DNA of 64,000 bases from Bacilli bacterium (GTDB taxonomy: Bacteria > Bacillota_I > Bacilli_A > RFN20 > CAG-826), in NCBI GenBank assembly GCA_017429285.1, contig JAFRPF010000041.1:2753-66752 (forward strand), in the 5' to 3' direction. Positions 8,892 through 60,704 of this stretch are shown here, piece by piece. Below the pieces are notes generated by a model that did no database searches, was not told the origin of the DNA, and saw nothing but the letters and a program-made list of their open reading frames with translations. Positions within the stretch are counted from its first letter, which is position 1. Each line of letters starts with the position of its first letter. Made by a program: the position numbers and the translations under genes.

Positions 8892-10730
8892 ATGAGAAAA
8901 AAACAAGTTATACCAGATATATATTTAAAGGCTTATATCGATAACGAAGCTGACGCGAACAAAAAAATGATTATCGTTAACGCGATCGGTGGAGGCGTTG
9001 CCACGATATTAGCGATTTGTTATGCGGTGCATTTTTTCACTATTCCTTCGATTATGTATCCGGTGGTTTTAGTTTTATTCCCGGTTAGTGCTTTATTATT
9101 ATTTTCTCCATTATTATTTATAAAAAGTGATCGCTTAAGATTACCAAGATTTAAAAACTTCTTATTATTCTCTTTAATGACTGTTGTCGCGGCGATTAAT
9201 ATCTTCTTACCAAAACACGGTCTATTAGCCTGGACTTTACCAATCGTGATGGCGAGCCATTATTATAACCCTCGCTTTGCGAGAGTTATCTTCTTTTCGA
9301 CAATAACTTTGATGTTAATTTGTATGTATACAGGAATGTTTCTCGGCGAATATGATCCTTTATTACTTAGCTCAGGTGTTGAAAAAGAAGCTGTTAACAC
9401 ACCAGAAGGGCGTCTTGAATTATTAAAAGATTTAATGGCGCAAGGTAATAATAGATACTTAAAAGTATTTACTTTATATTACATCCCTCGTGTTGCGGCG
9501 ATTTCTTTAGTATTCATCATCCTAGATTCTTTAAATAGAAGAACTAATAGATTACTAAGAGAAGAAATTCTCGCTAACGGCGAACACGAAAAATCTAGAA
9601 CCGAATTAAACATCGCGAAAGAAATTCAAATTAATACATTACCAAGTTCTGAAATTGATGATGGTGAAGTTCATATTGTGGGTGAACTAGACGCAGCGAA
9701 AGAAGTGGGCGGCGATTTATATGATTATCTATATATCGATGAAAATCATATCGCCATCCTAGTGGGTGATGTCTCTGGTAAAGGTGTTCCAGCGGCGATG
9801 TTTATGATGAAAGTTATCACTTCCTTTAGAGACTTTACTGTGAAAAATAAATTACCGTCAGAAATATTAAAAGATATTAATACCTCTATTATTAGAGGTA
9901 ATAAAGCCGGAATGTTTGTCACTTGCTTCTTAGCGATTTTCGATAAGAGAAACGGTAAGATTATCTATTCTAATGCTGGACATAATCCTCCACTTATTGG
10001 TAATAGCTTTAACTTTCGATATTTAAAACCAAAACAAGGCTTTTTATTAGGCATGTTTGATGATCCTCCACTCGTGGATGAAGAAATCGTTTTGAAAAAA
10101 GGTGAAAGTATCACTTTATATACGGATGGCATTACTGAAGCTAGAAATAGTAATGGCGAATTCTATGGAGAAGAGAGATTATTAGAAACTTTTAATAAAA
10201 AAGAACAATTCTCCATCGATGAATTACATGAAGATTTAAAAGAAGATATCGCTAACTTTGTGAAAGATGCACCACAAAGTGATGATATCACTTTCGTGAC
10301 ATTAAAATATCATGATGCTTCAGTTAGAACAAATCATAAACGCTTTGATGGAACCTTAGAAGATATTAAAAATATGCTTTCTTTTATCGGTGATTTCGCT
10401 ATTGAGAATGAATTTAGTGAAGAAAATAAAAATAAATTATTAATAGTGAGCGATGAAATATTATCTAATGTGGTCAAATATGGTTATCAAAATGAGGGTG
10501 GACCAATCATGATTAGGTTGTCATTTAATAAATCAATTAGTGAATTTACGATCACCGTGATCGATAAAGCTCCAGAATTTAATCAATTAGAAGTCAAAAC
10601 TGATAACAATAATGAAGAATTACATATCGGTGGATATGGTCTTTCCATTGTAAAAAATATTATGGATGAATATTCATATAATTATGCGGACGAGAAAAAC
10701 ATTTTAACTTTAAAAAAGATCATTAAGTGA
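8892..10730 (+). CDS. Membrane-bound PP2C (SpoIIE/RsbU-type) phosphatase fused to an RsbW/SpoIIAB-like HATPase_c kinase domain
   Basis: Multi-TM N-terminus. PP2C motifs: GGDLYDY, VGDVSGKGVPAAMFM, NAGHNPP, LYTDGITEA, DDITFV. The C-terminus has EILSNVVKYGY and GGYGLSIVKNIMDE (N and G boxes). Confidence 0.8.
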   Translation: MRKKQVIPDIYLKAYIDNEADANKKMIIVNAIGGGVATILAICYAVHFFTIPSIMYPVVLVLFPVSALLLFSPLLFIKSDRLRLPRFKNFLLFSLMTVVAAINIFLPKHGLLAWTLPIVMASHYYNPRFARVIFFSTITLMLICMYTGMFLGEYDPLLLSSGVEKEAVNTPEGRLELLKDLMAQGNNRYLKVFTLYYIPRVAAISLVFIILDSLNRRTNRLLREEILANGEHEKSRTELNIAKEIQINTLPSSEIDDGEVHIVGELDAAKEVGGDLYDYLYIDENHIAILVGDVSGKGVPAAMFMMKVITSFRDFTVKNKLPSEILKDINTSIIRGNKAGMFVTCFLAIFDKRNGKIIYSNAGHNPPLIGNSFNFRYLKPKQGFLLGMFDDPPLVDEEIVLKKGESITLYTDGITEARNSNGEFYGEERLLETFNKKEQFSIDELHEDLKEDIANFVKDAPQSDDITFVTLKYHDASVRTNHKRFDGTLEDIKNMLSFIGDFAIENEFSEENKNKLLIVSDEILSNVVKYGYQNEGGPIMIRLSFNKSISEFTITVIDKAPEFNQLEVKTDNNNEELHIGGYGLSIVKNIMDEYSYNYADEKNILTLKKIIK

Positions 10731-10741
10731 TGGAGGGAATT

Positions 10742-11896
10742 ATGAAGTTTGAATTAAATAAAGATGTGTTAACCATCTACTTAGAGGGGGAATTTAATTC
10801 TTCTAATGCGGAACAAATCGGTCAAGAAATTGACAAGATTGTTAATAAAGAAAAATTTAATAAATTAGTAATGGATCTAGCTAAGGTTAGCTATATTTCA
10901 AGTGCGGGTTTAAGAGTGTTTTTAAAACTTAAACAACGTTATGATAATTACTCCATTATTAACGCTAGTTTAGAAGTTTATGATGTCTTCCAAATGACCG
11001 GCTTCACTAACATGATGGATATTAAAAAAGCTTTAAGAAAAGTGGATGTATCTCACGCTGAAGTAATTGGAGAAGGCTTTTTCTCCACAGTCTATCGTTT
11101 GGATAAAGATACCATTGTGAAAGTTTTTAACCGCACAAGTGATGCTGATCAAATTCAAAGAGAATTACGCCTTGCTAAAGAAGCATTTGTTTTAGGTGTT
11201 CCTACGGCGATATCTTTTGATATCGTTCAAGCGGGAGATAAACTCGGCGTGATGTTTGAAATGCTCGATTGCGCTTCTTTAAAAAATGTCTTATTAGAAG
11301 ATAAAAAACATTACCAAGAAAATTTAAAGAAATATGCGATGTTATTAAAGAAAATTAACACCACAGAATGTTTAAATCCGGAAATCCCTGATATTAAAAA
11401 ACTTTACTTTAAGAAATTAGAAGAGATTAAGAAACATCTAGAAGATAAATATTATCAAAAAGCCAAGAAATTATTAGAATCTATCCCTGATCGAAAAACA
11501 TTCGTGCATGGTGATTGTCACTTTAAAAACATCATGGTCCAAAATGGCGAATTCTTATTAATTGATATGGATACCTTATCCGTTGGTCATCCCATATTTG
11601 AATTAGCGGCGATTTACGCCCCTTATTGCGCCTTTAACGAAGATGAACCCGGTAATAGTGTGAAATTCTTCGGCATCAAAGATGAAGATGCTAAAAATCT
11701 CTATAATACCGTTCTCGATTTATATTTCGGTAAAGATATTAAAGAAGGCAAAGATAAGATTAGATTATTAAGCTACATCCATATGGTGTGGTGGAATAGA
11801 GTTAACGAACCGAATAATAATGTGAGATTAGAAGGTTGCCGTTCTCGTTTATACGAATTATTAGATAAATATAACGATTTAGATATTGGCATATAA
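10742..11896 (+). CDS. STAS domain fused to an APH/choline-kinase-fold kinase domain
   Basis: The N-terminal STAS carries LVMDLAKVSYISSAGLRVF. The C-terminal kinase fold has IVKVF (Lys), HGDCHFKNIMV (catalytic loop) and LIDMD (metal-binding Asp). I chose ATG 10742 because it follows GGAGGG. Confidence 0.75.
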   Translation: MKFELNKDVLTIYLEGEFNSSNAEQIGQEIDKIVNKEKFNKLVMDLAKVSYISSAGLRVFLKLKQRYDNYSIINASLEVYDVFQMTGFTNMMDIKKALRKVDVSHAEVIGEGFFSTVYRLDKDTIVKVFNRTSDADQIQRELRLAKEAFVLGVPTAISFDIVQAGDKLGVMFEMLDCASLKNVLLEDKKHYQENLKKYAMLLKKINTTECLNPEIPDIKKLYFKKLEEIKKHLEDKYYQKAKKLLESIPDRKTFVHGDCHFKNIMVQNGEFLLIDMDTLSVGHPIFELAAIYAPYCAFNEDEPGNSVKFFGIKDEDAKNLYNTVLDLYFGKDIKEGKDKIRLLSYIHMVWWNRVNEPNNNVRLEGCRSRLYELLDKYNDLDIGI

Positions 11897-13580: not shown

Positions 13581-13786
13581 TGATATTTTAGTAAATGTAA
13601 ACCAAAAACTTTACTTTAGGTATTAAAAAGTATAGTTTTGTATTGTTTTATATTGCGTGGTCAGCTTTTATATTTTAATATATAAAAAACAACTACATTG
13701 TCCATTGTTTAATTTAGATTAAAAGCTATGGTCATTGTAAATCATTAAGTATCTTGTAATTAGTGATTATTTATAGGTATTGGTGT

Positions 13787-16700
13787 ATGAAGAAATCTAT
13801 TGTTAAAAGTATCGCGCTAGGAATTGGTGGATTATTAAGTCTATCCTTTTTGTTTGGCGTAGGTTCAAATAACCAATCTATCAATAAAGAAGATAGTGAC
13901 ACTGCTTTATTAGCAACTAGCGTAAAAAAACAACAACTCATTAATAGAGATGGCGTTAACACAGAAGGAACACCTTTACCTACTAGTGGCACGTTATCAG
14001 CAGGAACATATTATCTAGATTCTGACTCAACTATTACTTCGATATTAAATATTACTTCTGGTGACGTTATTGTAAATCTTAACGGACACACCTTAAATGG
14101 TGGTGGCCGAGATAAAGGTACTTTTTACGTAACAGGCGGAACATTAACGGTTAATGGTAAGGATGAGACAACCGGTCAGCGTGGCCTAATAAATAATGCC
14201 GGAGGCTATTATCCAGGTAGTGGTTATAGTTATGGCGGTGCGCTTTATATTACTAAAGGTGAAGCAACATTTAACGACCTTGACATTACAAATTGTCAAG
14301 CTAACTGGGGCGGTGCCATATATATGAGTAATAGCGCCGTTACTCTTAATAATTGTAATTTGTCTGGCAATAAAGCCACTAACGGCTATGGGTATCCTTG
14401 CGCCATTGATGTTGGGGATTCTTCTACCGCCGGGACAGGACTAACCGTAAATGGTGGTGAGATGTTTTCTAATGATGCCGGTATATCTTTAGGTAATAAA
14501 GCAAAGGCCACAATAAATGGAGCTTATATTCACGACAACGAGCGTTTTGGTGTCCGTGTTGAAGATAGTGGTGCAACTTTAAATATATCTGGTGATACTA
14601 TCATAAAAAACAATTCTACATCAACAACTTCGGGTGCACGTGCTAATTTACGTATAAATGGTACTAATCAAGCTAAAATTGCCATCACATCTGCTCTAGG
14701 TGATAATGCATCGATTGGTATTACCATGACCGGGACTCAAGGTATTTTTACCGCTAGTGCGGATACATCACTGAATGATTTCAGCAAATTCTTTAGTGAT
14801 GATGCTAATTATGCTGTTGCTAAAAACAGTGATGGTCAACTATATCTAACAGAAGCTGTTGCCACTGTCACGAGTGGTGCAACAGTTACGGAATATGCAA
14901 CTTTTAGTGATGCTGTTAGTGCATGGGGATCTGCTAGTAATGGCGCAAACTTGACATTACTAAAAGATTCGACTACTGAAAGCACAATCTCTGTTAGCGA
15001 TACTAAGACATTTGATTTAAATGGATGTGGCATTAACGCTAACGGAAGTAGCATTCCGATATTCACCGTTAATGCTGGTGGTGATTTTACTCTTAACGAT
15101 AGTGGTTCAACCACTCATTACTATACATTAGCTAATGTTGAATCTAATGGAGCGGCTTTTGCCACAATTTGTGATGAAGAAACTTATGAAGCTGCTGCAG
15201 CTGACGCTAGAGGAACTTTTACTGGTGGATATTTAACTGGGGCCAATCCTAGTGCACAAACTGGTATTTATCCAGGTGGTGGTATCTATATTTTAGCTAA
15301 TGGTGTGGCCACAATGAATGGTGGCACTATCATTGGTAATATTGCCTCTAACTGTGCTGGTGGAGTTGGAAGTTATGGCACATTCATTATGAACGATGGG
15401 AATATTATCTATAATCGTGCAAGAAGAGGAGCCGTTCTTGCTTCTGCAGGGGAAATGACAATTAATGGTGGTCATATCTCTTATAACACTGGTAGAGGCA
15501 CTCAAGATTGCGGTACCTCTGGCGCTGTAATGATTTATGGTAATTGCACCAGTTTCATTATTACTGGTGGTTATTTTACTAATAACTTTGCAAAATATGC
15601 CGGATTTGCTAGCAATATAGAAACTATCTCAATATCTGGTAATCCAGTATTTAAAGATAATATTGGTTGTGGCGCTAGTGGCACTGATACTACAGAAATT
15701 AATGCCTGGTTATGTAGAAGAAGTAATCTCAATGTCTATTTTGATATTGTTGGTGAATTAACTGAAGGTGCAGAAATAGGTGTCACTATAGAAAATACAT
15801 CTACAGGTGTTATCACTAACTCAAGTGATATTTCATATAATGACGAAAGTAAATTCTTTAGTGATGCTAGTTATGCCGTTGCGAAAAACAGTGATGGTCA
15901 ACTATATCTAACAAATGCTGTTGCCACTGTCACAAGTGGTGAAACGGTTACAGAATATAATAACTTTGATGACGCTCTTGCTGCATGGACTGATGAAACT
16001 ACTCTTAAATTATTAAAAGATGTCACTATGAGCGATACTATTAATGTGAATAATAATGCCACTCTTGACCTCAATGGTCATGGAATTAAAGCAACCGGCA
16101 CTGACTATAGTGTTCTTACTATTAATAATGGAGGAAAACTTATCATCATTGATAGTGGTGATACGACACAATATTTCACAATAACTGACCGTTATGATGG
16201 TAATGGGGCGGGATTTGCTACTGTTTGTGATAAAGCCACATATGATGCGGCTAGTGAAAACCTTAGAGGCACATTCCAAGGTGGCTATATTACTGGTGGG
16301 AATATCATAAACACCGGGTTTTATCAATCTAAAGCCGGAGCTATCACTGTTATGGAAGGTGGAGAACTTGATTTTAAAGCCGGTACTATTATTGGTAATA
16401 GCGGTGGCAGCGAATCTCCTGGTGGTGTTAGTTCATTTGGTACATTTACACTTAATGGTGGAAACATCATCTATAATCGAGGTAGAAGAGGCTCTGGAGT
16501 ATTTCTTGATAAAGGCACTTTCGTAATGAATAGTGGCTCTATTGAATATAACACTGGTGTAGGTGCAACTGAATATGGTACTTCTGCCTTACACTCATAT
16601 GGAAACACCAAGTCTATTTCCTTAAAAGGAGGAAGCATTTCTCATAACTATGCTAAGTATGGAGGAATTCTCACACCAATTAATATCTTTTTATCCGGAG

Positions 16701-19700
16701 ATTTCGTTGCCGCTAATAACATTGCTTGTGGATCTTCTGGAACCGACGCAGCAAATAGAAACATCATATTATCAGAGGGCGCACTTATAAGCGGATGTAT
16801 TACTGGAAATACACCTATAGGTATTAGTTTTCTTGGCTCTGATACTGGTGTATTTACTAATAATACCGATACATCTTTAAATGATCCTAGTAAGTTTGTA
16901 AGTGATAACACTAACTATGCTATTGGAGTTTATCCAGCTGATAGTACCAAAGCTGGACAATTATTCATTGGTAATAAGGTTACTGTTACTTATACTACTG
17001 AATACGGAACTGCGCCTGCTTCTGATGTAGTGGCAGACGGTTCTATTATTTATAATGAACCAACATCTCCAAGCCAGGAAGGTTATGTATTTATAGGTTG
17101 GTATAAGGATGAAGAATTTGAAAACGCCTGGGATTTTGCTACTGACACTGTCACTTCAAATACAACCTTATATGCTAAATGGTACGATGAAGCTACAGCC
17201 AATGTTATTAAACTAATCAATGATATTGGCGATCTTACATATGCAGGTGGTGTTAACGATTCATTAGATGACATTATCACTGCAAAAGCTGCATATGATG
17301 CATTAACTCCAAGCCAACAAGCAATTGTTAATAAAGAAAATAAAGATGTTTTGGATCACGACATCTTAACATATAGACATGTTGATAATGTTGCAGATTT
17401 AATTAAAGAAATTCCTGCAGCAAGTGATTCTCAAGAATATTACGGTGCAGTTGAAGCTGCTTTAGCAGCGTATAAAGCTTTAACCGATGAAGAAAAAAAC
17501 ATTTTAAATGCTAGTCTTGATTTCCAATACAAAAAGACACTTGATGATAATATCGCCGCTAAAGAAGTTATTGAACTTATCCAAGATATTGGAGAAGTAA
17601 CTTATAACGGTGGTCAAGATGACTCTAAAGACGATATCAATGCCGCCTTAGATGCGTATAACAATTTAACTGACGATCAAAAGGCAAGCGTTAATAACGC
17701 TAATAAAGATGCTTTAGATGAGGCAAAAGAAACATATGATAATGTCGATGAAGCCGTTAATCTAATTAATTCTATCGGTGATATTAATCACGGAGGAGAA
17801 AGCGATTCAAAAGAAGCAATCGATGCTGCTAAAGACGCTTATGAGTCTTTGACACCGGAAGAAAAAGCTCTTGTCGCTTCATATAATAACTCTGAAAAAA
17901 CATTAGAAGACGCTGAAGAAGTATATGATGTTTTAGTTAAAATCGATGACATCGGTGAAGGCGATGATGATGAGAAAATTAAAGAGGCTAGAGATGCTTA
18001 TGACGCCTTAACTCCAGAACAAAAAGATAAAGTGAACGATGAATCTTTCCAAAAATTAATTGCTGCTGAAAATCGTTCTAGTGACGCGAAAAAGCAAGCA
18101 AATATCTTATTTATCGTTTTCTTAATTCTTTCCATTCTCTTAATTGTTAGCGGATTAATCGTTCTCTTTGTTCTTCTTAAAAGAAGAAAAGATGAAAATA
18201 ATAGCAATAATAAGCAAGTAAAAGTAGCATCTATTTCTGGATTATTACCATTATTAATTTTAGTTTCATATTTTAGATCAACTAAATTTATCATCCTTTA
18301 TATTTTAATAGCTGTCGGAATTCTCATTTGGTTAGCTAACCTGATTCTCTTTGTTTCTAAAAAGAGACAAAAAGAAGTGAAAGTCGAAGCTAAACCTGAA
18401 ACAGTTATTTCCGCTGTATCTCAAGATAAACAAACTGAAATAATTAACGAAGATGAAGAAGAAGTGGAAACTATCACTGATGAAAAAGGCAATGTCTTCC
18501 AAATCAGGTTTATCAAATCTTTCACCGCTAAACTTATTCAATCTCCAGATGAAACTAAAAAATATTATGAAGAGCTTAAAAACGAAGTCCTTTCATATAA
18601 GAAAACAAATTCCAGAATCTCTTGGCATTATGATGCGGTTAATTCCGGAAGAAACTATGTTTTAAAATTTGTAATTAGAGGAAAAACACTTTGTGTTTAT
18701 CTTCCTTTAAACGCTGATGATTATGCTAATTCAAAATACAAAGTAGAGAAAGCTGAATCTAAACGTTATGAAGATGTACCATGTCTCTATCGTATTAAAA
18801 ATGATAGAAGATTAGGTTACGCGAAAGAACTTATCGAAGTGGTTGCTAATAACCTCGGTTTAGAAAAAGAGGAAGAACAACATGAAGTCTACTCTAATCT
18901 CCCATATGAACCTAATAAACCACTTGTTGCTAGAGGTTTAATTAAAGAACAAAAAATACAAGTTAATAAGCCCGCTAGTGAACCCGCTATATTAGAAACT
19001 AAAACTAATTCAGATGGAGATGAAGTGGTGGTCAGTAAAGACGCAAGTGGCAACATCTTTGAAATTAGATATATTAAGTCATTTACCGCTAAACTTATTC
19101 AGTCTCCAGATGAAACAAAGAAATATTATGAAGAGCTTAAAAATGAGGTTCTCTCTTATAAAAAGACTAACTCTAGAGTGAGTTGGCATTATGATGCGAT
19201 TAACTCTGGTAGAGAATATGTCTTAAAGTTCGCTATTAGAGGAAAAACACTTTGTGTCTATCTCCCACTTGATAGTGAGAATTTGGAAGATAAGTATAAA
19301 GTTGAAAAAGCGGAAAGTAAACGCTACGAAGATGTACCTTGCTTATATCGAATCAAGAATGATAGAAGACTAGGCTATGCAAAAGAACTTATCGCGATGG
19401 TGGTCTCTAACCTCGGCTTAGAAAAAGATGAAGAGCAACATGAAGTCTATTCAAATCTTCCATATGAAGAGAATAAACCGCTTATCGCTAGAGGTTTAAT
19501 CAAAGAACTTAAAGTTAAAGTAAATAAACCTGATTATGGTCCTGTTGTCTTAGAAAGCAAAGTCAACTCTGAAGGTGATGAAGTAGTATTAACTAAAGAT
19601 AGCAGTGGTAACTTATTTGAAATTAGATATATCAAATCATTTACTGCAAAACTCTCTCAAAGTGAGGCCGAAGTTAAAGATTATTACACAATTTTAAAGA

Positions 19701-20431
19701 ATTATGTTTTCTCTTATAAAGGAATCCATTCTAGAGTAAGTTGGCACTATGATGCGATTAATATTGGTAGAGACTACATATTAAAATTTGCGATTAGAGG
19801 TAAAACATTGTGTGTCTATTTCGCCTTAGATGCTTCTAAATTAGACAATAAATATAAAGTTGAAGAGGCAAAAGGAAATAGATATATCGAAGTTCCGTGC
19901 TTATATCGTATTAAAAACGATCGTAGATGTGAGTATGCTAAAGAGCTCATTGATCTATTAATGAAAGAACATGGATTAAATCAAGGTGATATTCCTAATG
20001 AGGATTATCATATTAAAAAAGAATCCACAAAAGCGTTACTTGATAAAGGCTTAATTAAGGAAGTTAAATCTAAAATCCATGATCAAAAAGTGATCGAACA
20101 TTATGAATCAATTACAGTAAGTAAAGCTGATGAAGTGATGTCTGATGAAAAAGCTGAAGCTTCTATTCAAGAAGTTATAGTAATTAAACATAAAGAAGGT
20201 AGTAAAGTAATCATCAATATTGATACCTTATCAAAGAATTATAATAATGGTGATGAAGTTACTCTTGATTCATTGATTGAAAAAGGATTAGTGCCTTCAA
20301 AAGCCGGCCACATTAAAGTTCTTGCTAGAGGAGAATTAGATAAGAAACTACATGTTGTCGCTAATGATTATTCATTACAAGCTATTAAGATGATTGTCTT
20401 AGTGGGTGGTACTGTTAAAAAGATCAAATAA
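13787..20431 (+). CDS. Giant (about 2214 aa) transmembrane surface protein: signal peptide, Pmp-like beta-helix repeats, Flg_new repeat, helical repeats, TM cluster, 3 cytoplasmic repeats, uL15-like C-terminal domain
   Basis: Signal-like N-terminus MKKSIVKSIALGIGGLLSLSFLF starting at ATG 13787 (ORF-track GTG 13763 is less likely). GGAIY/GGALY and FxxN motifs. YVFIGWY...LYAKW is a Listeria-Bacteroides repeat. Hydrophobic segments at about 18104-18355 are each followed by KRRK or KKRQK. The C-terminus aligns to RplO. Confidence 0.85.
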   Translation: MKKSIVKSIALGIGGLLSLSFLFGVGSNNQSINKEDSDTALLATSVKKQQLINRDGVNTEGTPLPTSGTLSAGTYYLDSDSTITSILNITSGDVIVNLNGHTLNGGGRDKGTFYVTGGTLTVNGKDETTGQRGLINNAGGYYPGSGYSYGGALYITKGEATFNDLDITNCQANWGGAIYMSNSAVTLNNCNLSGNKATNGYGYPCAIDVGDSSTAGTGLTVNGGEMFSNDAGISLGNKAKATINGAYIHDNERFGVRVEDSGATLNISGDTIIKNNSTSTTSGARANLRINGTNQAKIAITSALGDNASIGITMTGTQGIFTASADTSLNDFSKFFSDDANYAVAKNSDGQLYLTEAVATVTSGATVTEYATFSDAVSAWGSASNGANLTLLKDSTTESTISVSDTKTFDLNGCGINANGSSIPIFTVNAGGDFTLNDSGSTTHYYTLANVESNGAAFATICDEETYEAAAADARGTFTGGYLTGANPSAQTGIYPGGGIYILANGVATMNGGTIIGNIASNCAGGVGSYGTFIMNDGNIIYNRARRGAVLASAGEMTINGGHISYNTGRGTQDCGTSGAVMIYGNCTSFIITGGYFTNNFAKYAGFASNIETISISGNPVFKDNIGCGASGTDTTEINAWLCRRSNLNVYFDIVGELTEGAEIGVTIENTSTGVITNSSDISYNDESKFFSDASYAVAKNSDGQLYLTNAVATVTSGETVTEYNNFDDALAAWTDETTLKLLKDVTMSDTINVNNNATLDLNGHGIKATGTDYSVLTINNGGKLIIIDSGDTTQYFTITDRYDGNGAGFATVCDKATYDAASENLRGTFQGGYITGGNIINTGFYQSKAGAITVMEGGELDFKAGTIIGNSGGSESPGGVSSFGTFTLNGGNIIYNRGRRGSGVFLDKGTFVMNSGSIEYNTGVGATEYGTSALHSYGNTKSISLKGGSISHNYAKYGGILTPINIFLSGDFVAANNIACGSSGTDAANRNIILSEGALISGCITGNTPIGISFLGSDTGVFTNNTDTSLNDPSKFVSDNTNYAIGVYPADSTKAGQLFIGNKVTVTYTTEYGTAPASDVVADGSIIYNEPTSPSQEGYVFIGWYKDEEFENAWDFATDTVTSNTTLYAKWYDEATANVIKLINDIGDLTYAGGVNDSLDDIITAKAAYDALTPSQQAIVNKENKDVLDHDILTYRHVDNVADLIKEIPAASDSQEYYGAVEAALAAYKALTDEEKNILNASLDFQYKKTLDDNIAAKEVIELIQDIGEVTYNGGQDDSKDDINAALDAYNNLTDDQKASVNNANKDALDEAKETYDNVDEAVNLINSIGDINHGGESDSKEAIDAAKDAYESLTPEEKALVASYNNSEKTLEDAEEVYDVLVKIDDIGEGDDDEKIKEARDAYDALTPEQKDKVNDESFQKLIAAENRSSDAKKQANILFIVFLILSILLIVSGLIVLFVLLKRRKDENNSNNKQVKVASISGLLPLLILVSYFRSTKFIILYILIAVGILIWLANLILFVSKKRQKEVKVEAKPETVISAVSQDKQTEIINEDEEEVETITDEKGNVFQIRFIKSFTAKLIQSPDETKKYYEELKNEVLSYKKTNSRISWHYDAVNSGRNYVLKFVIRGKTLCVYLPLNADDYANSKYKVEKAESKRYEDVPCLYRIKNDRRLGYAKELIEVVANNLGLEKEEEQHEVYSNLPYEPNKPLVARGLIKEQKIQVNKPASEPAILETKTNSDGDEVVVSKDASGNIFEIRYIKSFTAKLIQSPDETKKYYEELKNEVLSYKKTNSRVSWHYDAINSGREYVLKFAIRGKTLCVYLPLDSENLEDKYKVEKAESKRYEDVPCLYRIKNDRRLGYAKELIAMVVSNLGLEKDEEQHEVYSNLPYEENKPLIARGLIKELKVKVNKPDYGPVVLESKVNSEGDEVVLTKDSSGNLFEIRYIKSFTAKLSQSEAEVKDYYTILKNYVFSYKGIHSRVSWHYDAINIGRDYILKFAIRGKTLCVYFALDASKLDNKYKVEEAKGNRYIEVPCLYRIKNDRRCEYAKELIDLLMKEHGLNQGDIPNEDYHIKKESTKALLDKGLIKEVKSKIHDQKVIEHYESITVSKADEVMSDEKAEASIQEVIVIKHKEGSKVIINIDTLSKNYNNGDEVTLDSLIEKGLVPSKAGHIKVLARGELDKKLHVVANDYSLQAIKMIVLVGGTVKKIK
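14786..16891 (+). repeat. Two tandem paralogous units of about 1.05 kb inside the ectodomain-coding region
   Basis: The marker KFFSD(D)A(N)YAVAKNSDGQLYLT(E/N)AVATVTSG(A/E)TVTEY recurs at 14786 and 15851 (period 1065 nt). A third, diverged boundary, SKFVSDNTNYAIG, is at 16892. Confidence 0.7.
18478..20100 (+). repeat. Three tandem repeats of about 558 nt (186 aa) in the predicted cytoplasmic region
   Basis: Units start at about 18478, 19035 and 19593: G-N-(V/I/L)-F-(Q/E)-IR(F/Y)IKSFTAKL ... SWHYDA(V/I)N ... IRGKTLCVY ... VPCLYRIKNDRR ... AKELI. Units 1 and 2 look roughly 80% identical at DNA level by eye. Confidence 0.8.
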
Positions 20432-20461: not shown

Positions 20462-21499
20462 ATGATTATGTTCAATTTAAAAAGTAAAAGATTATCTATT
20501 TTTGAAAAGGTGTTTGGGTGTGTTTTCCTCGTGTTAACACTCACCTATTTTGTTTTACTTGCCTTTGGCAAATGGATATTCGCTACCAATAGTGTTTTCT
20601 ATCGTAGTTTGAATATCTTCTCTGGAGCGAGTGACCCAAATGTCTTTATTAGGATCCTCAGCTATTCTTTCTTTATCTTTGGAAGTAGCTATATCGTAAG
20701 ATTATTACTCACCTTATGCTTACCATTATTAAAGAAAACCAGAGGATTATTAACCATTTTGATTTCTGTGATTAAATATGCAGCTGTCTTAGTATGGATA
20801 TTCTTTGTTTTATCTAGCTTTGGAGTTAATACCACCGTCATTTTAGCAGGTATTGGCATTCTCTCATTAATTGTTGGACTCGCTATTCAACCATTACTCG
20901 CCGATATCATCGCTGGTTTATTTATCGTTTTTGAAGATGTTTTCCATGTTGGTGATGTCATCGTTGCAGATGGCTTTAGAGGACAAGTTAAAGAAATCGG
21001 TATGAGACATACTCAACTTGTTGATGCTGGAGGCAATGTTAAAGTCATCAATAACTCCGATATCCGTTCAATGGTCAACTTAACTGACCAACTTTCTGTT
21101 GTTGCAGTGGATATGTCCATTGAATATGGCGAATCTTTGGAAAGAGTTGAAGCTATCATTGCTCAAAACATTGATAAGATTAAAGAAGCTATCCCCGCTA
21201 TTGTTGAAGGTCCTTTCTATAAAGGCGTTTCCGCTTTAGCAGATTCATCAGTCAACTTAAAATTCTTTGCTAAGTGTGAGGAAGATGACAGATTCCAAGT
21301 TGAAAGAGATTTAAATAGACAATTCAAATTATTATTTGATAAGTACAATATCAATATTCCATTCCCACAAGTGGTGGTTAATCAACCAGTGAATTTTGAA
21401 GAAGCCACTGCAAAGGATAAGAAAATTGCCGAACAATTTGTTAATGAACAAAAAGTAACTTCTAGTGGAATTGAAGAAAACAATAACGACGTTAAATAA
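20462..21499 (+). CDS. Small-conductance mechanosensitive channel (MscS family)
   Basis: TM helices followed by VGDVIVADGFRGQVKEIGMRHTQLVDAGGNVKVINNSDI (MscS beta-domain signature). AGGAG precedes the ATG. Confidence 0.85.
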   Translation: MIMFNLKSKRLSIFEKVFGCVFLVLTLTYFVLLAFGKWIFATNSVFYRSLNIFSGASDPNVFIRILSYSFFIFGSSYIVRLLLTLCLPLLKKTRGLLTILISVIKYAAVLVWIFFVLSSFGVNTTVILAGIGILSLIVGLAIQPLLADIIAGLFIVFEDVFHVGDVIVADGFRGQVKEIGMRHTQLVDAGGNVKVINNSDIRSMVNLTDQLSVVAVDMSIEYGESLERVEAIIAQNIDKIKEAIPAIVEGPFYKGVSALADSSVNLKFFAKCEEDDRFQVERDLNRQFKLLFDKYNINIPFPQVVVNQPVNFEEATAKDKKIAEQFVNEQKVTSSGIEENNNDVK

Positions 21500-21501
21500 A
21501 T

Positions 21502-23142
21502 ATGGATTTTGAAAAGAACAATTTACATCTTAATAACGATTACGATAATTACAAAACTGATGAAATAAACAAGATTCAGCAAGGTAATGAAAGTTTTCAT
21601 ATTAATCATGAATCTTACTTTTCTAATGAAAAATTTGATGAAATAAAAGAATTAAATAATTTCTCTACTTCTACTAGTAATAAACCTTTTAAACAAGATG
21701 GAAGTAATTTAAAACAAACCCCTAATGCTTCAAGCGCGATTAGTAGTGGAAGCGCTTCCCTTAGTGCTGGGGCAGCTTCTATTGCTCTTCCTTCTGCTAT
21801 AGTTGCTTTAGCAGGAGCGGTGGCGGTTATTGGAGTCTCTTCTGGATTCATTCAAACCCCACCTTCTAATCATGTCTCACTATTCATGAGCAGAAGTACT
21901 GAATTAGGGTTTGAAATTGATCGAGATAGAAATAAACCACATGTCATGTATTTGACTAATGAAGAATATTCATATTCTGAAGCTGTTGATTTCATTGATC
22001 GAGTCGTTTTTAAAGATTTAATTCCTAACACCGTTTACGATTTAAAGGTTTATGATACAAGTGTCGATCCAAATGAACTCGTATATAGAGGGAATTATTT
22101 AACCCCGGCTTATGATCAATATTCTTCTTCGATTACCAACACTACTCTAGATGGAAATACTTTAACCTTTGATGTTAATTATGAAGGAAATGGCATCGAT
22201 TTCGTCACAATTATAGTCTATGGAGATAATAACGAAGTTATTTATAAATATGAAGGTTCTCCAATAGATACAATAACTTTAAACGCTGCTGGATATCAAA
22301 ATGTCACTTGCTCTATTGAAATAAATGGACAGATAACTCATTTTGAGCAGTTATTTGCAAGTCAAGAAATCATTCGTGTCACTAGCGTTTCTTTAGATCA
22401 ATCATCATTAGAACTTTCTACTGGTGATACTCATGAATTTGTAGCAACAGTTCTTCCTATAAACGCCACAAATAAAGAATTGATTTGGTCTAGTAGTGAT
22501 GAAAGTGTTCTTACTGTTACCGATGGAGTAATTACCGCTTTAAAAGAAGGAAAGGCTACTGTCACTGTTAAATCTAAAGATGGATATAAATCATCCAGTG
22601 CGGAAATAACAGTGGTTAAAAAGCCTTCTGTTGTTCATGTTAGTAGTGTTTCATTAAATGAAACCACATTAAATATGGAGACTGGAGATCGTTATTCATT
22701 ACAAGCGACAGTTTTACCAAGTAACGCTAGCGATAAATCACTCAATTGGAGTAGTAATAACGAATCAGTGGTTACTGTTAATAGTAAAGGTAAAATCACT
22801 GCTGTTAGTGCCGGACAAGCTATCATTACAGCAACTACTACTGATGGAGGTTTAACCGCTTCATGTACGGTTAATATTACTCAAAAAATAGTCCCAGCTA
22901 CTGGTATAAAACTCAATTATAATGAATTAGAACTAAGTGTTGGTGGTAGTGAAAGCTTAGTTGCTACGGTCTTGCCAACTAACGCGACCAATAAAGAAGT
23001 TATTTGGTCATCCACTAATGAAGCTGTAGTCACAGTTGATGAAAATGGATTAGTGAGCGCCGTTAGCGCAGGTGATGCCATCATTGTTGTTAAATCAGTC
23101 GATGGTGGTTATCAAGATTTCTGTGTTGTAACAGTAATTTGA
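21502..23142 (+). CDS. Membrane-anchored surface protein with three Big_2 (bacterial Ig-like group 2) domains
   Basis: One Ala-rich TM segment near residue 100. Three copies of V(S/T)SVSL...L..G....L.ATVLP.NA(T/S)(N/D)K...W(S)S(S).ESV.TV. Confidence 0.8.
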   Translation: MDFEKNNLHLNNDYDNYKTDEINKIQQGNESFHINHESYFSNEKFDEIKELNNFSTSTSNKPFKQDGSNLKQTPNASSAISSGSASLSAGAASIALPSAIVALAGAVAVIGVSSGFIQTPPSNHVSLFMSRSTELGFEIDRDRNKPHVMYLTNEEYSYSEAVDFIDRVVFKDLIPNTVYDLKVYDTSVDPNELVYRGNYLTPAYDQYSSSITNTTLDGNTLTFDVNYEGNGIDFVTIIVYGDNNEVIYKYEGSPIDTITLNAAGYQNVTCSIEINGQITHFEQLFASQEIIRVTSVSLDQSSLELSTGDTHEFVATVLPINATNKELIWSSSDESVLTVTDGVITALKEGKATVTVKSKDGYKSSSAEITVVKKPSVVHVSSVSLNETTLNMETGDRYSLQATVLPSNASDKSLNWSSNNESVVTVNSKGKITAVSAGQAIITATTTDGGLTASCTVNITQKIVPATGIKLNYNELELSVGGSESLVATVLPTNATNKEVIWSSTNEAVVTVDENGLVSAVSAGDAIIVVKSVDGGYQDFCVVTVI

Positions 23143-23190: not shown

Positions 23191-23345
23191 AAAGAATGAA
23201 ATTAAAATAACACGTAATTCATTTACGTGTCTTGAGATTTAATTGCGCCCTTAAATGTCACAACACGGACAATAATCTTCATTAACAATAATTTGCTGTT
23301 AACAAAATAAAAAAATATGTTAAAATGTTTACAGAGGTGAGAAAT

Positions 23346-24395
23346 ATGGTAGGAAAGAAAATTAAATACTATCGCCTTAAAAAAGGCTTAACATCTGAAC
23401 AATTGGCAAAAGAGGTAGGCTGTACAAAAGCAGCAATTTCACTTTATGAAAGTGAAGAAAGAGAGCCAAGCAAGGAAATCTGCAAAACTATTGCGGCTGT
23501 TTTAGGTGTGCCTTGGGTTGAATTGATATCTAGAAGTAATAATAAATTGGTTTTTGACCATATCAGCTTTAGAAAAAAACAAAAAGCATCAAAAAAAGAC
23601 ATTGAATTACTTAAGACGGAAATCGAAGAAAAATGTGCTAATCGCATTTCTTTGATGAATATTGTTGGGTTAATTAATTTTAAGACCTTCAAACCAAAGA
23701 AATTATCATATGATCATAGCGTTTCTGAAAACGCCAAAATTATTAGATCCCTATTAGGCCTTCCTTCTAGTGGTCCAATTTATTCCGTCACTAATATTCT
23801 CGAACATGCAGGCATTATTGTTTTATCTTTCGAGTGCACTGATGAGATAGATGGCATTAATGGATTAGTTAACGGTATTCCATATATTTTCTTTAACTCT
23901 AAAAATAGAACCATTGAAAGACAAAGATTCACAATTGTTCATGAGGCTTGTCATTTATTCTTCAATGATTCAGAAGTGAACAAAACAGAAAAAGAAATTG
24001 AAAAATATATAAACCAAGTAGCTGGAAATGTTTTGATTCCTGACGATGATATCTATTCTATTTTTGGAAAAACAAATAGAAACATCACAATCTATTTAAG
24101 AGACAATGTCGCCAAGCAATATAAGATTGCTCCTTCCTGTTTATTAAATAGGCTTTTAGAAGCTGGAGTCATTACAGAAATGTATCATAAGAATTATTTT
24201 ATTTATTTAAATAGAAACTATGGTAGAAAAGCTGAAAAAACTCTTCTGGATCCTATTAAAGATTCTGAAGAACCAACTATTTTCACACAATACGTTTATT
24301 TAGCTTTATCTGAAGAACTTATATCTGCATCTAGAGCTGCTGAATTTTTACATGTGCCGCTTTATGATGTGATGCAAAACATGAGGGTAGAATAA
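23346..24395 (+). CDS. XRE-family HTH fused to ImmA/IrrE (COG2856) zinc metallopeptidase domain
   Basis: HTH: KIKYYRLKKGLTSEQLAKEVGCTKAAISLYESEER. HEXXH motif: VHEACHLFF. I chose ATG 23346 because it follows GAGGTGA. Confidence 0.8.
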   Translation: MVGKKIKYYRLKKGLTSEQLAKEVGCTKAAISLYESEEREPSKEICKTIAAVLGVPWVELISRSNNKLVFDHISFRKKQKASKKDIELLKTEIEEKCANRISLMNIVGLINFKTFKPKKLSYDHSVSENAKIIRSLLGLPSSGPIYSVTNILEHAGIIVLSFECTDEIDGINGLVNGIPYIFFNSKNRTIERQRFTIVHEACHLFFNDSEVNKTEKEIEKYINQVAGNVLIPDDDIYSIFGKTNRNITIYLRDNVAKQYKIAPSCLLNRLLEAGVITEMYHKNYFIYLNRNYGRKAEKTLLDPIKDSEEPTIFTQYVYLALSEELISASRAAEFLHVPLYDVMQNMRVE

Positions 24396-26585: not shown

Positions 26586-26676
26586 TGGCGGAGGAACAGG
26601 GATTTGAACCCTGGCACCGAGTTACCAGTCTACGAGCTTTCCAAGCCCGCCCCTTCAGCCTCTTGGGTATTCCTCC
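26586..26676 (-). tRNA. tRNA-Ser (anticodon GGA)
   Basis: The reverse complement folds as a class II tRNA. Acceptor GGAGGAA/TTCCTCC, anticodon loop TTGGAAA, long variable arm, T-arm CAGGG-TTCAAAT-CCCTG, encoded CCA. Confidence 0.9.
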
Positions 26677-39198: not shown

Positions 39199-39289
39199 TG
39201 GCGGAGAAGATGGGGTTCGAACCCATGCGAGACTTGCATCTCCTAGCAGTTTTCGAAACTGCCCCCTTGAGCCGCTTGGGTACTTCTCC
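39199..39289 (-). tRNA. tRNA-Ser (anticodon CGA)
   Basis: The reverse complement has acceptor GGAGAAG/CTTCTCC, anticodon stem-loop GCAGT-TTCGAAA-ACTGC, a long variable arm, T-arm ATGGG-TTCGAAC-CCCAT, and encoded CCA. Confidence 0.9.
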
Positions 39290-42660: not shown

Positions 42661-42751
42661 GGAGTAGTACCCAAGTTGGTGAAGGGGCTTCCCTGCTAAG
42701 GAAGTAGATCGGGTAACTGGTGCGAGAGTTCGAGTCTCTCCTACTCCGCCA
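42661..42751 (+). tRNA. tRNA-Ser (anticodon GCU)
   Basis: Acceptor GGAGTAG/CTACTCC, anticodon stem-loop CTTCC-CTGCTAA-GGAAG, long variable arm, T-arm GAGAG-TTCGAGT-CTCTC, encoded CCA. Confidence 0.9.
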
Positions 42752-60630: not shown

Positions 60631-60704
60631 TGGAGCAGGTGACGGGAATCGAACCCGCATAACTAGCTTGGAAGGCTAGTGTTCTACCACTGAACTACAC
60701 CTGC
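60631..60704 (-). tRNA. tRNA-Gly (anticodon UCC)
   Basis: The reverse complement is GCAGGTGTAGTTCAGTGGTAGAACACTAGCCTTCCAAGCTAGTTATGCGGGTTCGATTCCCGTCACCTGCTCCA. It gives a canonical cloverleaf with anticodon loop CTTCCAA. Confidence 0.9.

Follow-up and report, generated by a model that had tools for sequence, protein, structure and literature searches.

A uL15-type ribosomal domain as the terminal element of a giant membrane protein and of a conserved module family in gut and rumen Firmicutes

A stretch of 64,000 nucleotides from a Bacilli bacterium (contig JAFRPF010000041.1 of assembly GCA_017429285.1, positions 2,753 to 66,752, hereafter the window) carries a 2,222-codon open reading frame (ORF) for a giant membrane protein. 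The last 75 residues of this protein, referred to here as the tail (aa 2148-2222), are genuinely homologous to the globular domain at the C-terminus of the bacterial ribosomal protein uL15 (RplO), and closest to the uL15 of Bacillota. The domain was copied from the ribosomal protein and fixed as the last domain of a conserved module, which, as delineated by sequence comparison, consists of one to three basic repeats of ~185 amino acids, an acidic helix and the uL15-like domain, follows membrane helices and is predicted to be cytoplasmic. To our knowledge, the uL15/eL18 fold is otherwise seen only inside ribosomes, in agreement with every PDB match obtained here. This is thus a clear case of exaptation, a known domain being found in an undescribed, widespread and non-ribosomal setting.

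The tail, translated from positions 20204-20428 of the forward strand as KVIINIDTLSKNYNNGDEVTLDSLIEKGLVPSKAGHIKVLARGELDKKLHVVANDYSLQAIKMIVLVGGTVKKIK, corresponds to the last 75 codons of ORF 13763-20431 and is identical to the tail quoted in a first-pass annotation of this DNA, with one additional K at either end. That annotation had claimed a position-for-position match to the C-terminus of Bacillus subtilis RplO and had named beforehand the PF00828 profile as a refuting test. The profile (Ribosomal_L27A, uL15/eL18 family) matched the tail alone with an E-value of 1.2e-14 and 54.9 bits, for a gathering score of 21.5 bits, and was aligned over positions 1-71 of 72. When the tail was compared with PDB sequences by phmmer, the matches were uL15 chains only, those of Listeria, Staphylococcus, Enterococcus and Bacillus being at the top (E=4e-9 to 3e-8). 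The best of them, Listeria chain 7nhn_O (E=3.7e-9), aligned tail residues 3-71 with uL15 residues 76-143, and the proposed correspondence with B. subtilis was recovered with chain 3j3v_L (E=2.8e-8), tail residues 3-72 pairing with uL15 residues 76-144. A profile made from 44 members of the family likewise found only uL15/eL18/L27A chains in the PDB, each by way of the tail, with an Enterococcus uL15 as the top match (E=9.6e-11).

An AlphaFold2 (AF2) model of residues 1890-2222 had a mean predicted local distance difference test score (pLDDT) of 87.7, with values of 96-97 in the blocks of the tail. In a Foldseek comparison with the PDB, uL15 chains ranked first with a probability of 1.00, the root-mean-square deviation (rmsd) being 1.1 Å over 74 columns for 8fmw_AN and 1.3 Å over 71 columns for 5o60_M. 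The predicted structure therefore superposes on the uL15 globular domain, the other comparison on which the claim of homology had been made to depend. Chance similarity of the tail to uL15 is excluded by E-values reaching 1e-14 together with this superposition.

The likeness to bacterial uL15 (RplO; PF00828, TIGR01071; chains 7nhn_O, 4wce_I, 6o8w_M and 3j3v_L) lies in the alpha/beta globular C-domain, at 32-40% identity, with a common motif of VN.D.L ... K(V/I)L..G.L.K.L.V ... S..A ... and a terminal GG. Unlike uL15, the tail is the fused terminal part of a membrane protein, stands outside any spc operon, carries LARG and AVKMI motifs and is preceded by a conserved acidic helix. The equivalog profile TIGR01071 (rplO_bact) gave 46.8 bits, under its cut-off of 77.95, and was aligned only at positions 75-143 of 144. 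Consequently, the Gly/Arg-rich N-terminal extension of uL15 (profile positions 1-74) is absent, the acidic helix and a repeat occupying the upstream sequence. Within the window, no second PF00828-like sequence and no ribosomal-protein operon were found, and the tail ends a very long ORF instead of forming a small free protein of ~145 amino acids in an spc operon. The identity as a genuine rplO was rejected on account of the TIGR01071 shortfall, the lack of the N-terminal extension and the neighbouring genes for a GT2 glycosyltransferase and an MscS-like channel, in line with the first-pass annotation, which had set the tail apart from the ribosomal protein proper.

The exact protein is nevertheless deposited on 14 contigs as MBR0440225.1, with the automatic NCBI name 'uL15 family ribosomal protein [Bacilli bacterium]', and since it already carries the uL15 name, the Pfam match is implicit in databases. 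This name and the PF00828 match are what would speak for a real or alternative ribosomal protein. On the other hand, a membrane protein of 2,214 amino acids that is matched by TIGR01071 below the cut-off and by its C-terminal half only is hard to reconcile with such a role, and an artefact of chance or misassembly is at odds with E-values of 1e-14, with a fusion seen in dozens of independent assemblies and with the recurrence of the exact protein on 14 contigs. Both explanations are hardly credible, the public name is misleading, and misassembly or artificial fusion was rejected because the fusion recurs in many independent metagenome-assembled genomes (MAGs). Assembly did affect the closest relative, at 96% identity (L001), in which a 100-N scaffold gap (9737-9836) lying within the repeats splits the giant into ORFs of 1,534 and 530 amino acids. 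Because of this gap, the public 530-amino-acid protein P0001 is regarded as an assembly-induced fragment, L001 having the same giant ORF.

A search of 5.8 billion proteins with the last repeat and the tail retrieved 772 proteins at E<=1e-3. Typical members have 250-580 amino acids. Their N-terminal transmembrane (TM) anchor, with its basic stop-transfer flank, is followed by an acidic linker, one or two repeats, the acidic element and, last, the tail. Members that have just a short TM anchor in place of a giant ectodomain measure 350-650 amino acids. According to local hidden Markov model counts on 200 proteins, 161 have repeats and tail, 37 have repeats only and 2 are tail-only fragments. The tail ends at most 4 residues from the C-terminus in 162 of the 163 tail-bearing proteins and 7 residues from it in the other. 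With a profile of the repeat only, an exhaustive HMMER search returned 3,622 clusters (50% identity) at E<=1e-3 and 1,832 at E<=1e-30, the top matches having up to 7 repeats and lengths up to 4,721 amino acids. Among the cluster representatives, TM segments precede the repeats in 142, 50 of which have the tail, and follow them in one marginal exception.

A tail-specific peptide pattern detected 268 confirmed relatives among 185,579 species, each represented by one genome; 80 of these loci were kept, and the taxon labels and counts of giants given here cover them. The 80 relatives come from uncultured rumen and gut MAGs, several genomes having more than one copy, and among their labels are Bacilli, Erysipelotrichaceae, 'Bacillales', Clostridia, Christensenella, Borkfalkiaceae, Coproplasma, Ruminococcus and Acholeplasmatales. 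Giants of 1,200 to >2,400 amino acids account for ~34 of the 80 loci; in these proteins, a signal-like N-terminus and a long ectodomain precede one to three TM helices, with the module behind them. In those scanned, PF00828 was present in 23 of 23 and Flg_new in 14 of 23. The survey for orphan uL15 domains suggested by the first-pass annotation did find the domain in other proteins, where it is not an orphan but the terminal element of a large module family.

The consensus of 152 distinct tails is GKKxIINIDTLSxNFxDGDxVTLExLxxKxLxxxxxGxVKVLARGxLDKxLxVxxxDYSxxAVKMIxLxGGxV, with at least 90% conservation at N.D, K.LARG.L.K.L, S..A.KM and GG. The Arg of LARG, a motif not found in real uL15, is invariant and specific to the family. 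In the last helix, the acidic A.EAIEAAGG of uL15 is changed to an invariant hydrophobic/basic AVKMIxLTGG. The acidic helix is conserved jointly with the tail, always before it, and was modelled by AF2 with a pLDDT of ~90. As read from the alignment, these changes show that purifying selection now acts on a function other than the ribosomal one. A tblastn comparison also gave a weak in-frame echo of the tail in the ectodomain (16280-16378, 33 amino acids, 45% identity, E=0.002), with the Gly-rich sequence GGYITGGNIINTGFYQSKAGAITVMEGGELDFK; as a second copy of the tail it was rejected, being judged a chance match of a Gly-rich stretch.

The three basic repeats of the window protein (R1-R3), ~185 amino acids each, are mutually 56-63% identical. 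No Pfam family reached E<=1 for R3 and no consistent Pfam match was seen across 54 members; weak matches of the repeats to UBA_6, GhoS and spanin were treated as noise. The AF2 model of R3 had a predicted TM-score (pTM) of 0.88. Its nearest Foldseek neighbour in the PDB was E. coli YjbR (2fki), with a probability of 0.99 but a TM-score of 0.54 and E=0.05, and other remote matches were YdhG/DUF1801 (2oc6, 9t2w) and VP1028. In a viral structure library, the repeat matched a phage protein annotated DUF5655 (E=3.7e-3, rmsd 3.3 Å over 108 columns). Furthermore, P0124, a distant member and one of the top matches of the repeat profile, is matched by Pfam DUF5655 on its own repeat (E=3.6e-17), and another member of the repeat family matches DUF1801 (E=6e-5). 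Because of the Foldseek neighbours and of these two Pfam matches, the repeat is regarded as a divergent, extended DUF5655/DUF1801/YjbR-like domain.

With the "double-wing" proteins of the DUF5655 (PF18899), DUF1801/YdhG (PF08818) and MmcQ/YjbR (PF04237) families, the repeats appear to have in common a core of the beta-alpha-beta4-alpha type. They differ from them by added N-terminal strands and a C-terminal helix/strand extension (~185 against ~110-120 amino acids), by their tandem arrangement and by their tethering to the membrane. The number and the basicity of the repeats announced by the first-pass annotation were both found, 21 columns being at least 70% Lys/Arg against 10 acidic ones, but what had been described simply as basic repeats are folded domains, each with a remote DUF5655/YjbR likeness.

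In multi-repeat relatives that have no TM segment, a separate DUF2357-like domain stands beside the repeats in 15 of 35 proteins scanned (e.g. P0128, P0132, P0145, P0153, P0159, P0214). DUF2357 is the N-terminal domain of McrC (PMC11090510), and these relatives suggest that part of the repeat family is soluble and possibly linked to restriction or defence. Models of the PADLOC system PDC-S18, which is a candidate phage-defence system only and on which no paper was found in a literature search, match the tail-less relatives P0069 (E=1.7e-12), P0032 and P0098. For residues 1547-2222 of the window protein, no PDC-S18 match was obtained at E<=0.1, and membership of the window protein in a defence system was rejected, as PDC-S18 matches only tail-less relatives. 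The likeness to PDC-S18 and to McrC DUF2357 proteins is thus limited to tail-less or TM-less repeat relatives, which, unlike the window protein, have no uL15-like tail and no membrane anchor; the window protein itself matches neither model.

As to function, the module is read here as a membrane-tethered platform for binding a polyanion, most likely nucleic acid (RNA, ribonucleoprotein or DNA), an interpretation that we favour and consider not far short of probable. Suspended on the cytoplasmic side of the membrane, up to three DUF5655/YjbR-like basic domains and the uL15-derived one would hold the ligand against the membrane, beneath the surface protein. The uL15-derived domain has retained the parent Lys/Gly core K-V-L-x-x-G-x-L-x-K-x-L and gained the invariant Arg, and the repeats, whose fold is apparently related to that of "double-wing" DNA-binding proteins, would offer a large number of conserved basic residues. 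Hints of polyanion binding come from the excess of basic over acidic conserved columns in the repeat, from the K.LARG.L.K.L conservation of the tail, from the YjbR, YdhG/DUF1801 and DUF5655 likenesses of the repeat and from the DUF2357-like domain that accompanies the repeats in TM-less relatives. About half of the family would have the platform beneath a giant adhesin-like ectodomain.

Several observations weigh against this interpretation. In mature 50S subunits the uL15 site is already filled by the real protein, and simple docking of the tail there is therefore unlikely. The AVKMIxLTGG last helix suggests that the tail now offers a surface to another protein instead of keeping an RNA contact, and the upstream acidic helix might cover the basic face of the tail. 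Regarding the repeats, those of the window protein gave nothing significant in Pfam, NCBIfam, PHROGs or PADLOC, their likeness to YjbR/DUF1801 is weak (TM-score ~0.5, Foldseek E>0.01 in the PDB), and the YjbR/DUF1801 families include members that do not bind DNA, such as frataxin-like YdhG. Finally, no conserved partner gene was seen beyond close relatives, either in three distant members labelled with Pfam or in an all-against-all comparison of flanking ORFs at 87 loci.

Some of these features would be expected of a protein-protein scaffold, in which nucleic-acid binding has been lost and cytoplasmic oligomerisation or docking clusters or positions surface proteins, or recruits a partner. The hydrophobic last helix and LARG, both invariant and both foreign to real uL15, are consistent with it, as are the conserved acidic helix packed beside the tail, a repeat number anywhere between 1 and 7, such variation being typical of scaffolds, and the presence of the module behind many different ectodomains. 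Nevertheless, the Lys positions of the parent domain are kept, the repeats are rich in conserved basic columns, and a recruited partner has no counterpart in a conserved gene nearby. A scaffold of this kind is possible, if rather unlikely.

A more direct use of the ribosomal ancestry would be a ribosome or pre-ribosome tether, or a mimic of uL15, whose tail binds the uL15 site of 23S rRNA on uL15-free intermediates or else another ribosomal surface. The tail, with the identity to Bacillota uL15 C-domains given above, is nearly superposable on them, and the layout, in which a membrane anchor precedes basic repeats or a basic tail in the cytoplasm, resembles that of the membrane ribosome tethers, namely eukaryotic p180/RRBP1 and the basic C-tails of YidC/Oxa1. 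With these proteins, there is no relationship of sequence or fold and the analogy would be functional only. One short member also adjoins translation genes: at locus L086, P0014 is encoded between a gene for an ABC-F-type ATPase and ruvX, just upstream of rpsB-tsf-pyrH-frr. Since it is the sole neighbourhood of this kind seen, it may be a coincidence. Moreover, the N-terminal extension, source of much of the contact between uL15 and rRNA, is absent, the uL15 site is filled in mature subunits, and many family members have no tail. For these reasons the tether is considered doubtful.

To the same extent, it is improbable that the module acts as a membrane receptor for ribosomes, pre-50S particles or mRNA, in other words as a prokaryotic counterpart of the ribosome receptors of the endoplasmic reticulum. 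In such a receptor, the exapted uL15 domain and the tandem DUF5655-like domains would gather translation or the assembly of ribosomes close to the membrane, often beneath giant adhesins.

A regulator freed by proteolysis was also considered, whereby engagement of the ectodomain leads to cleavage and the nucleic-acid-binding module then acts on cytoplasmic DNA or RNA. A large ectodomain together with TM segments and a part that putatively binds nucleic acid recalls membrane-localised regulators, and surface sensors of Firmicutes are known to undergo regulated intramembrane proteolysis (PMC10556640). However, about half of the family has no ectodomain and only a short TM anchor, no conserved gene for a site-2 protease or a sigma/anti-sigma factor lies nearby, and no helix-turn-helix (HTH) or other classical regulator domain was found with Pfam and NCBIfam. 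Release of such a regulator is accordingly very improbable.

In full-text literature searches, no description of this architecture, of the family or of a non-ribosomal uL15 domain was found, uL15 appearing in marker-gene uses only. The family is a clear-cut example of how a core domain of the ribosome was recruited to a task outside it, in abundant, uncultured gut and rumen Firmicutes. It is also a source of systematic mis-annotation, as proteins of up to 2,214 amino acids that are named ribosomal can distort marker-gene and functional profiling. If binding of RNA, ribosomes or DNA is true, the module would represent a new kind of link between the cell envelope and nucleic-acid machinery, joined physically to surface adhesins.

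The overall organisation of the window protein is given in Table 1. The layout described by the first-pass annotation was recovered, with a signal-like N-terminus, the ectodomain matches, three hydrophobic helices and the three repeats; its placement of the tail at the inner face of the membrane follows from hydropathy and stays a prediction. Because of the basic loops beside the hydrophobic helices (KRRKDENN... and ...KKRQKE), the C-terminal ~690 amino acids are predicted to be cytoplasmic by the positive-inside rule. The N-terminal signal-like segment would presumably be cleaved. In the ectodomain, Flg_new is the Listeria-Bacteroides repeat, and helical repeats are also found near the membrane.

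Table 1. Features of the giant membrane protein, with coordinates in the window (aa, amino acids)
Feature	Coordinates	Strand	Basis or remark
Whole ORF	13763..20431	+	2,222 codons from GTG
Likely true start, ATG	13787	+	gives 2,214 aa = NCBI MBR0440225.1
Sec-type signal-like N-terminus MKKSIVKSIALGIGGLLSLSFLFGVGS... (aa 9-38)	13787..13876	+	hydropathy
Acidic ectodomain, pI 4.3	13877..18097	+	Beta_helix aa 158-298; Flg_new aa 1074-1139
Three hydrophobic helices, aa 1446-1471, 1486-1504, 1510-1533	18098..18361	+	hydropathy
Basic repeat R1, aa 1553-1739, DUF5655/YjbR-like fold	18419..18979	+	profile/alignment comparison
Basic repeat R2, aa 1740-1926	18980..19540	+	
Basic repeat R3, aa 1927-2110	19541..20092	+	AF2 pLDDT 95.7
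Acidic helical element SITVSKADEVMSDEKAEASIQE, aa 2116-2137	20108..20173	+	family consensus VSVxEADxxxSDEVAxxxIE
uL15 C-terminal-domain homologue, aa 2148-2222	20204..20428	+	PF00828, phmmer, Foldseek; extreme C-terminus

The hairpin formed by the second and third helices (TM2-TM3, 18218-18361) is conserved both in giants of the Bacilli type and in some short members (e.g. P0003), with the consensus G..P...L.SHY.....IILY. Because the sequence of this hairpin is conserved, the membrane part may belong to the functional module and be more than a mere anchor.

Upstream of the giant gene are genes for a fused SpoIIE-type phosphatase/HATPase, a STAS-kinase protein and a GT2 glycosyltransferase. The first two form a partner-switching-like pair at 8892-11896, made of a 612-amino-acid SpoIIE/PP2C phosphatase-HATPase_c_2 protein (RsbW-like kinase) and a 389-amino-acid STAS-APH-type kinase; in L001, an additional stand-alone STAS gene immediately precedes this pair. 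Downstream, a gene for an MscS-like channel (20462-21499) and one for a Big_2 surface protein (21502-23142) follow after gaps of 30 and 2 bases. This MscS-like and Big_2 synteny is confined to 8 closely related loci and does not extend to the wider family. As the neighbouring genes are not conserved across the family, the giant gene appears to act alone.

Further along the window, a fusion of HTH_3 and Peptidase_M78 (ImmA/IrrE-like) is encoded at 23325-24395, followed by small ORFs and a DUF4417 gene, and this region may mark the border of a mobile or prophage-like element. Lone tRNA genes were located at 26586-26676, 39199-39289, 42661-42751 and 60631-60704, three being for tRNA-Ser (GGA, CGA, GCT) and one for tRNA-Gly(TCC). 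The G+C content of the window is 32.8%.

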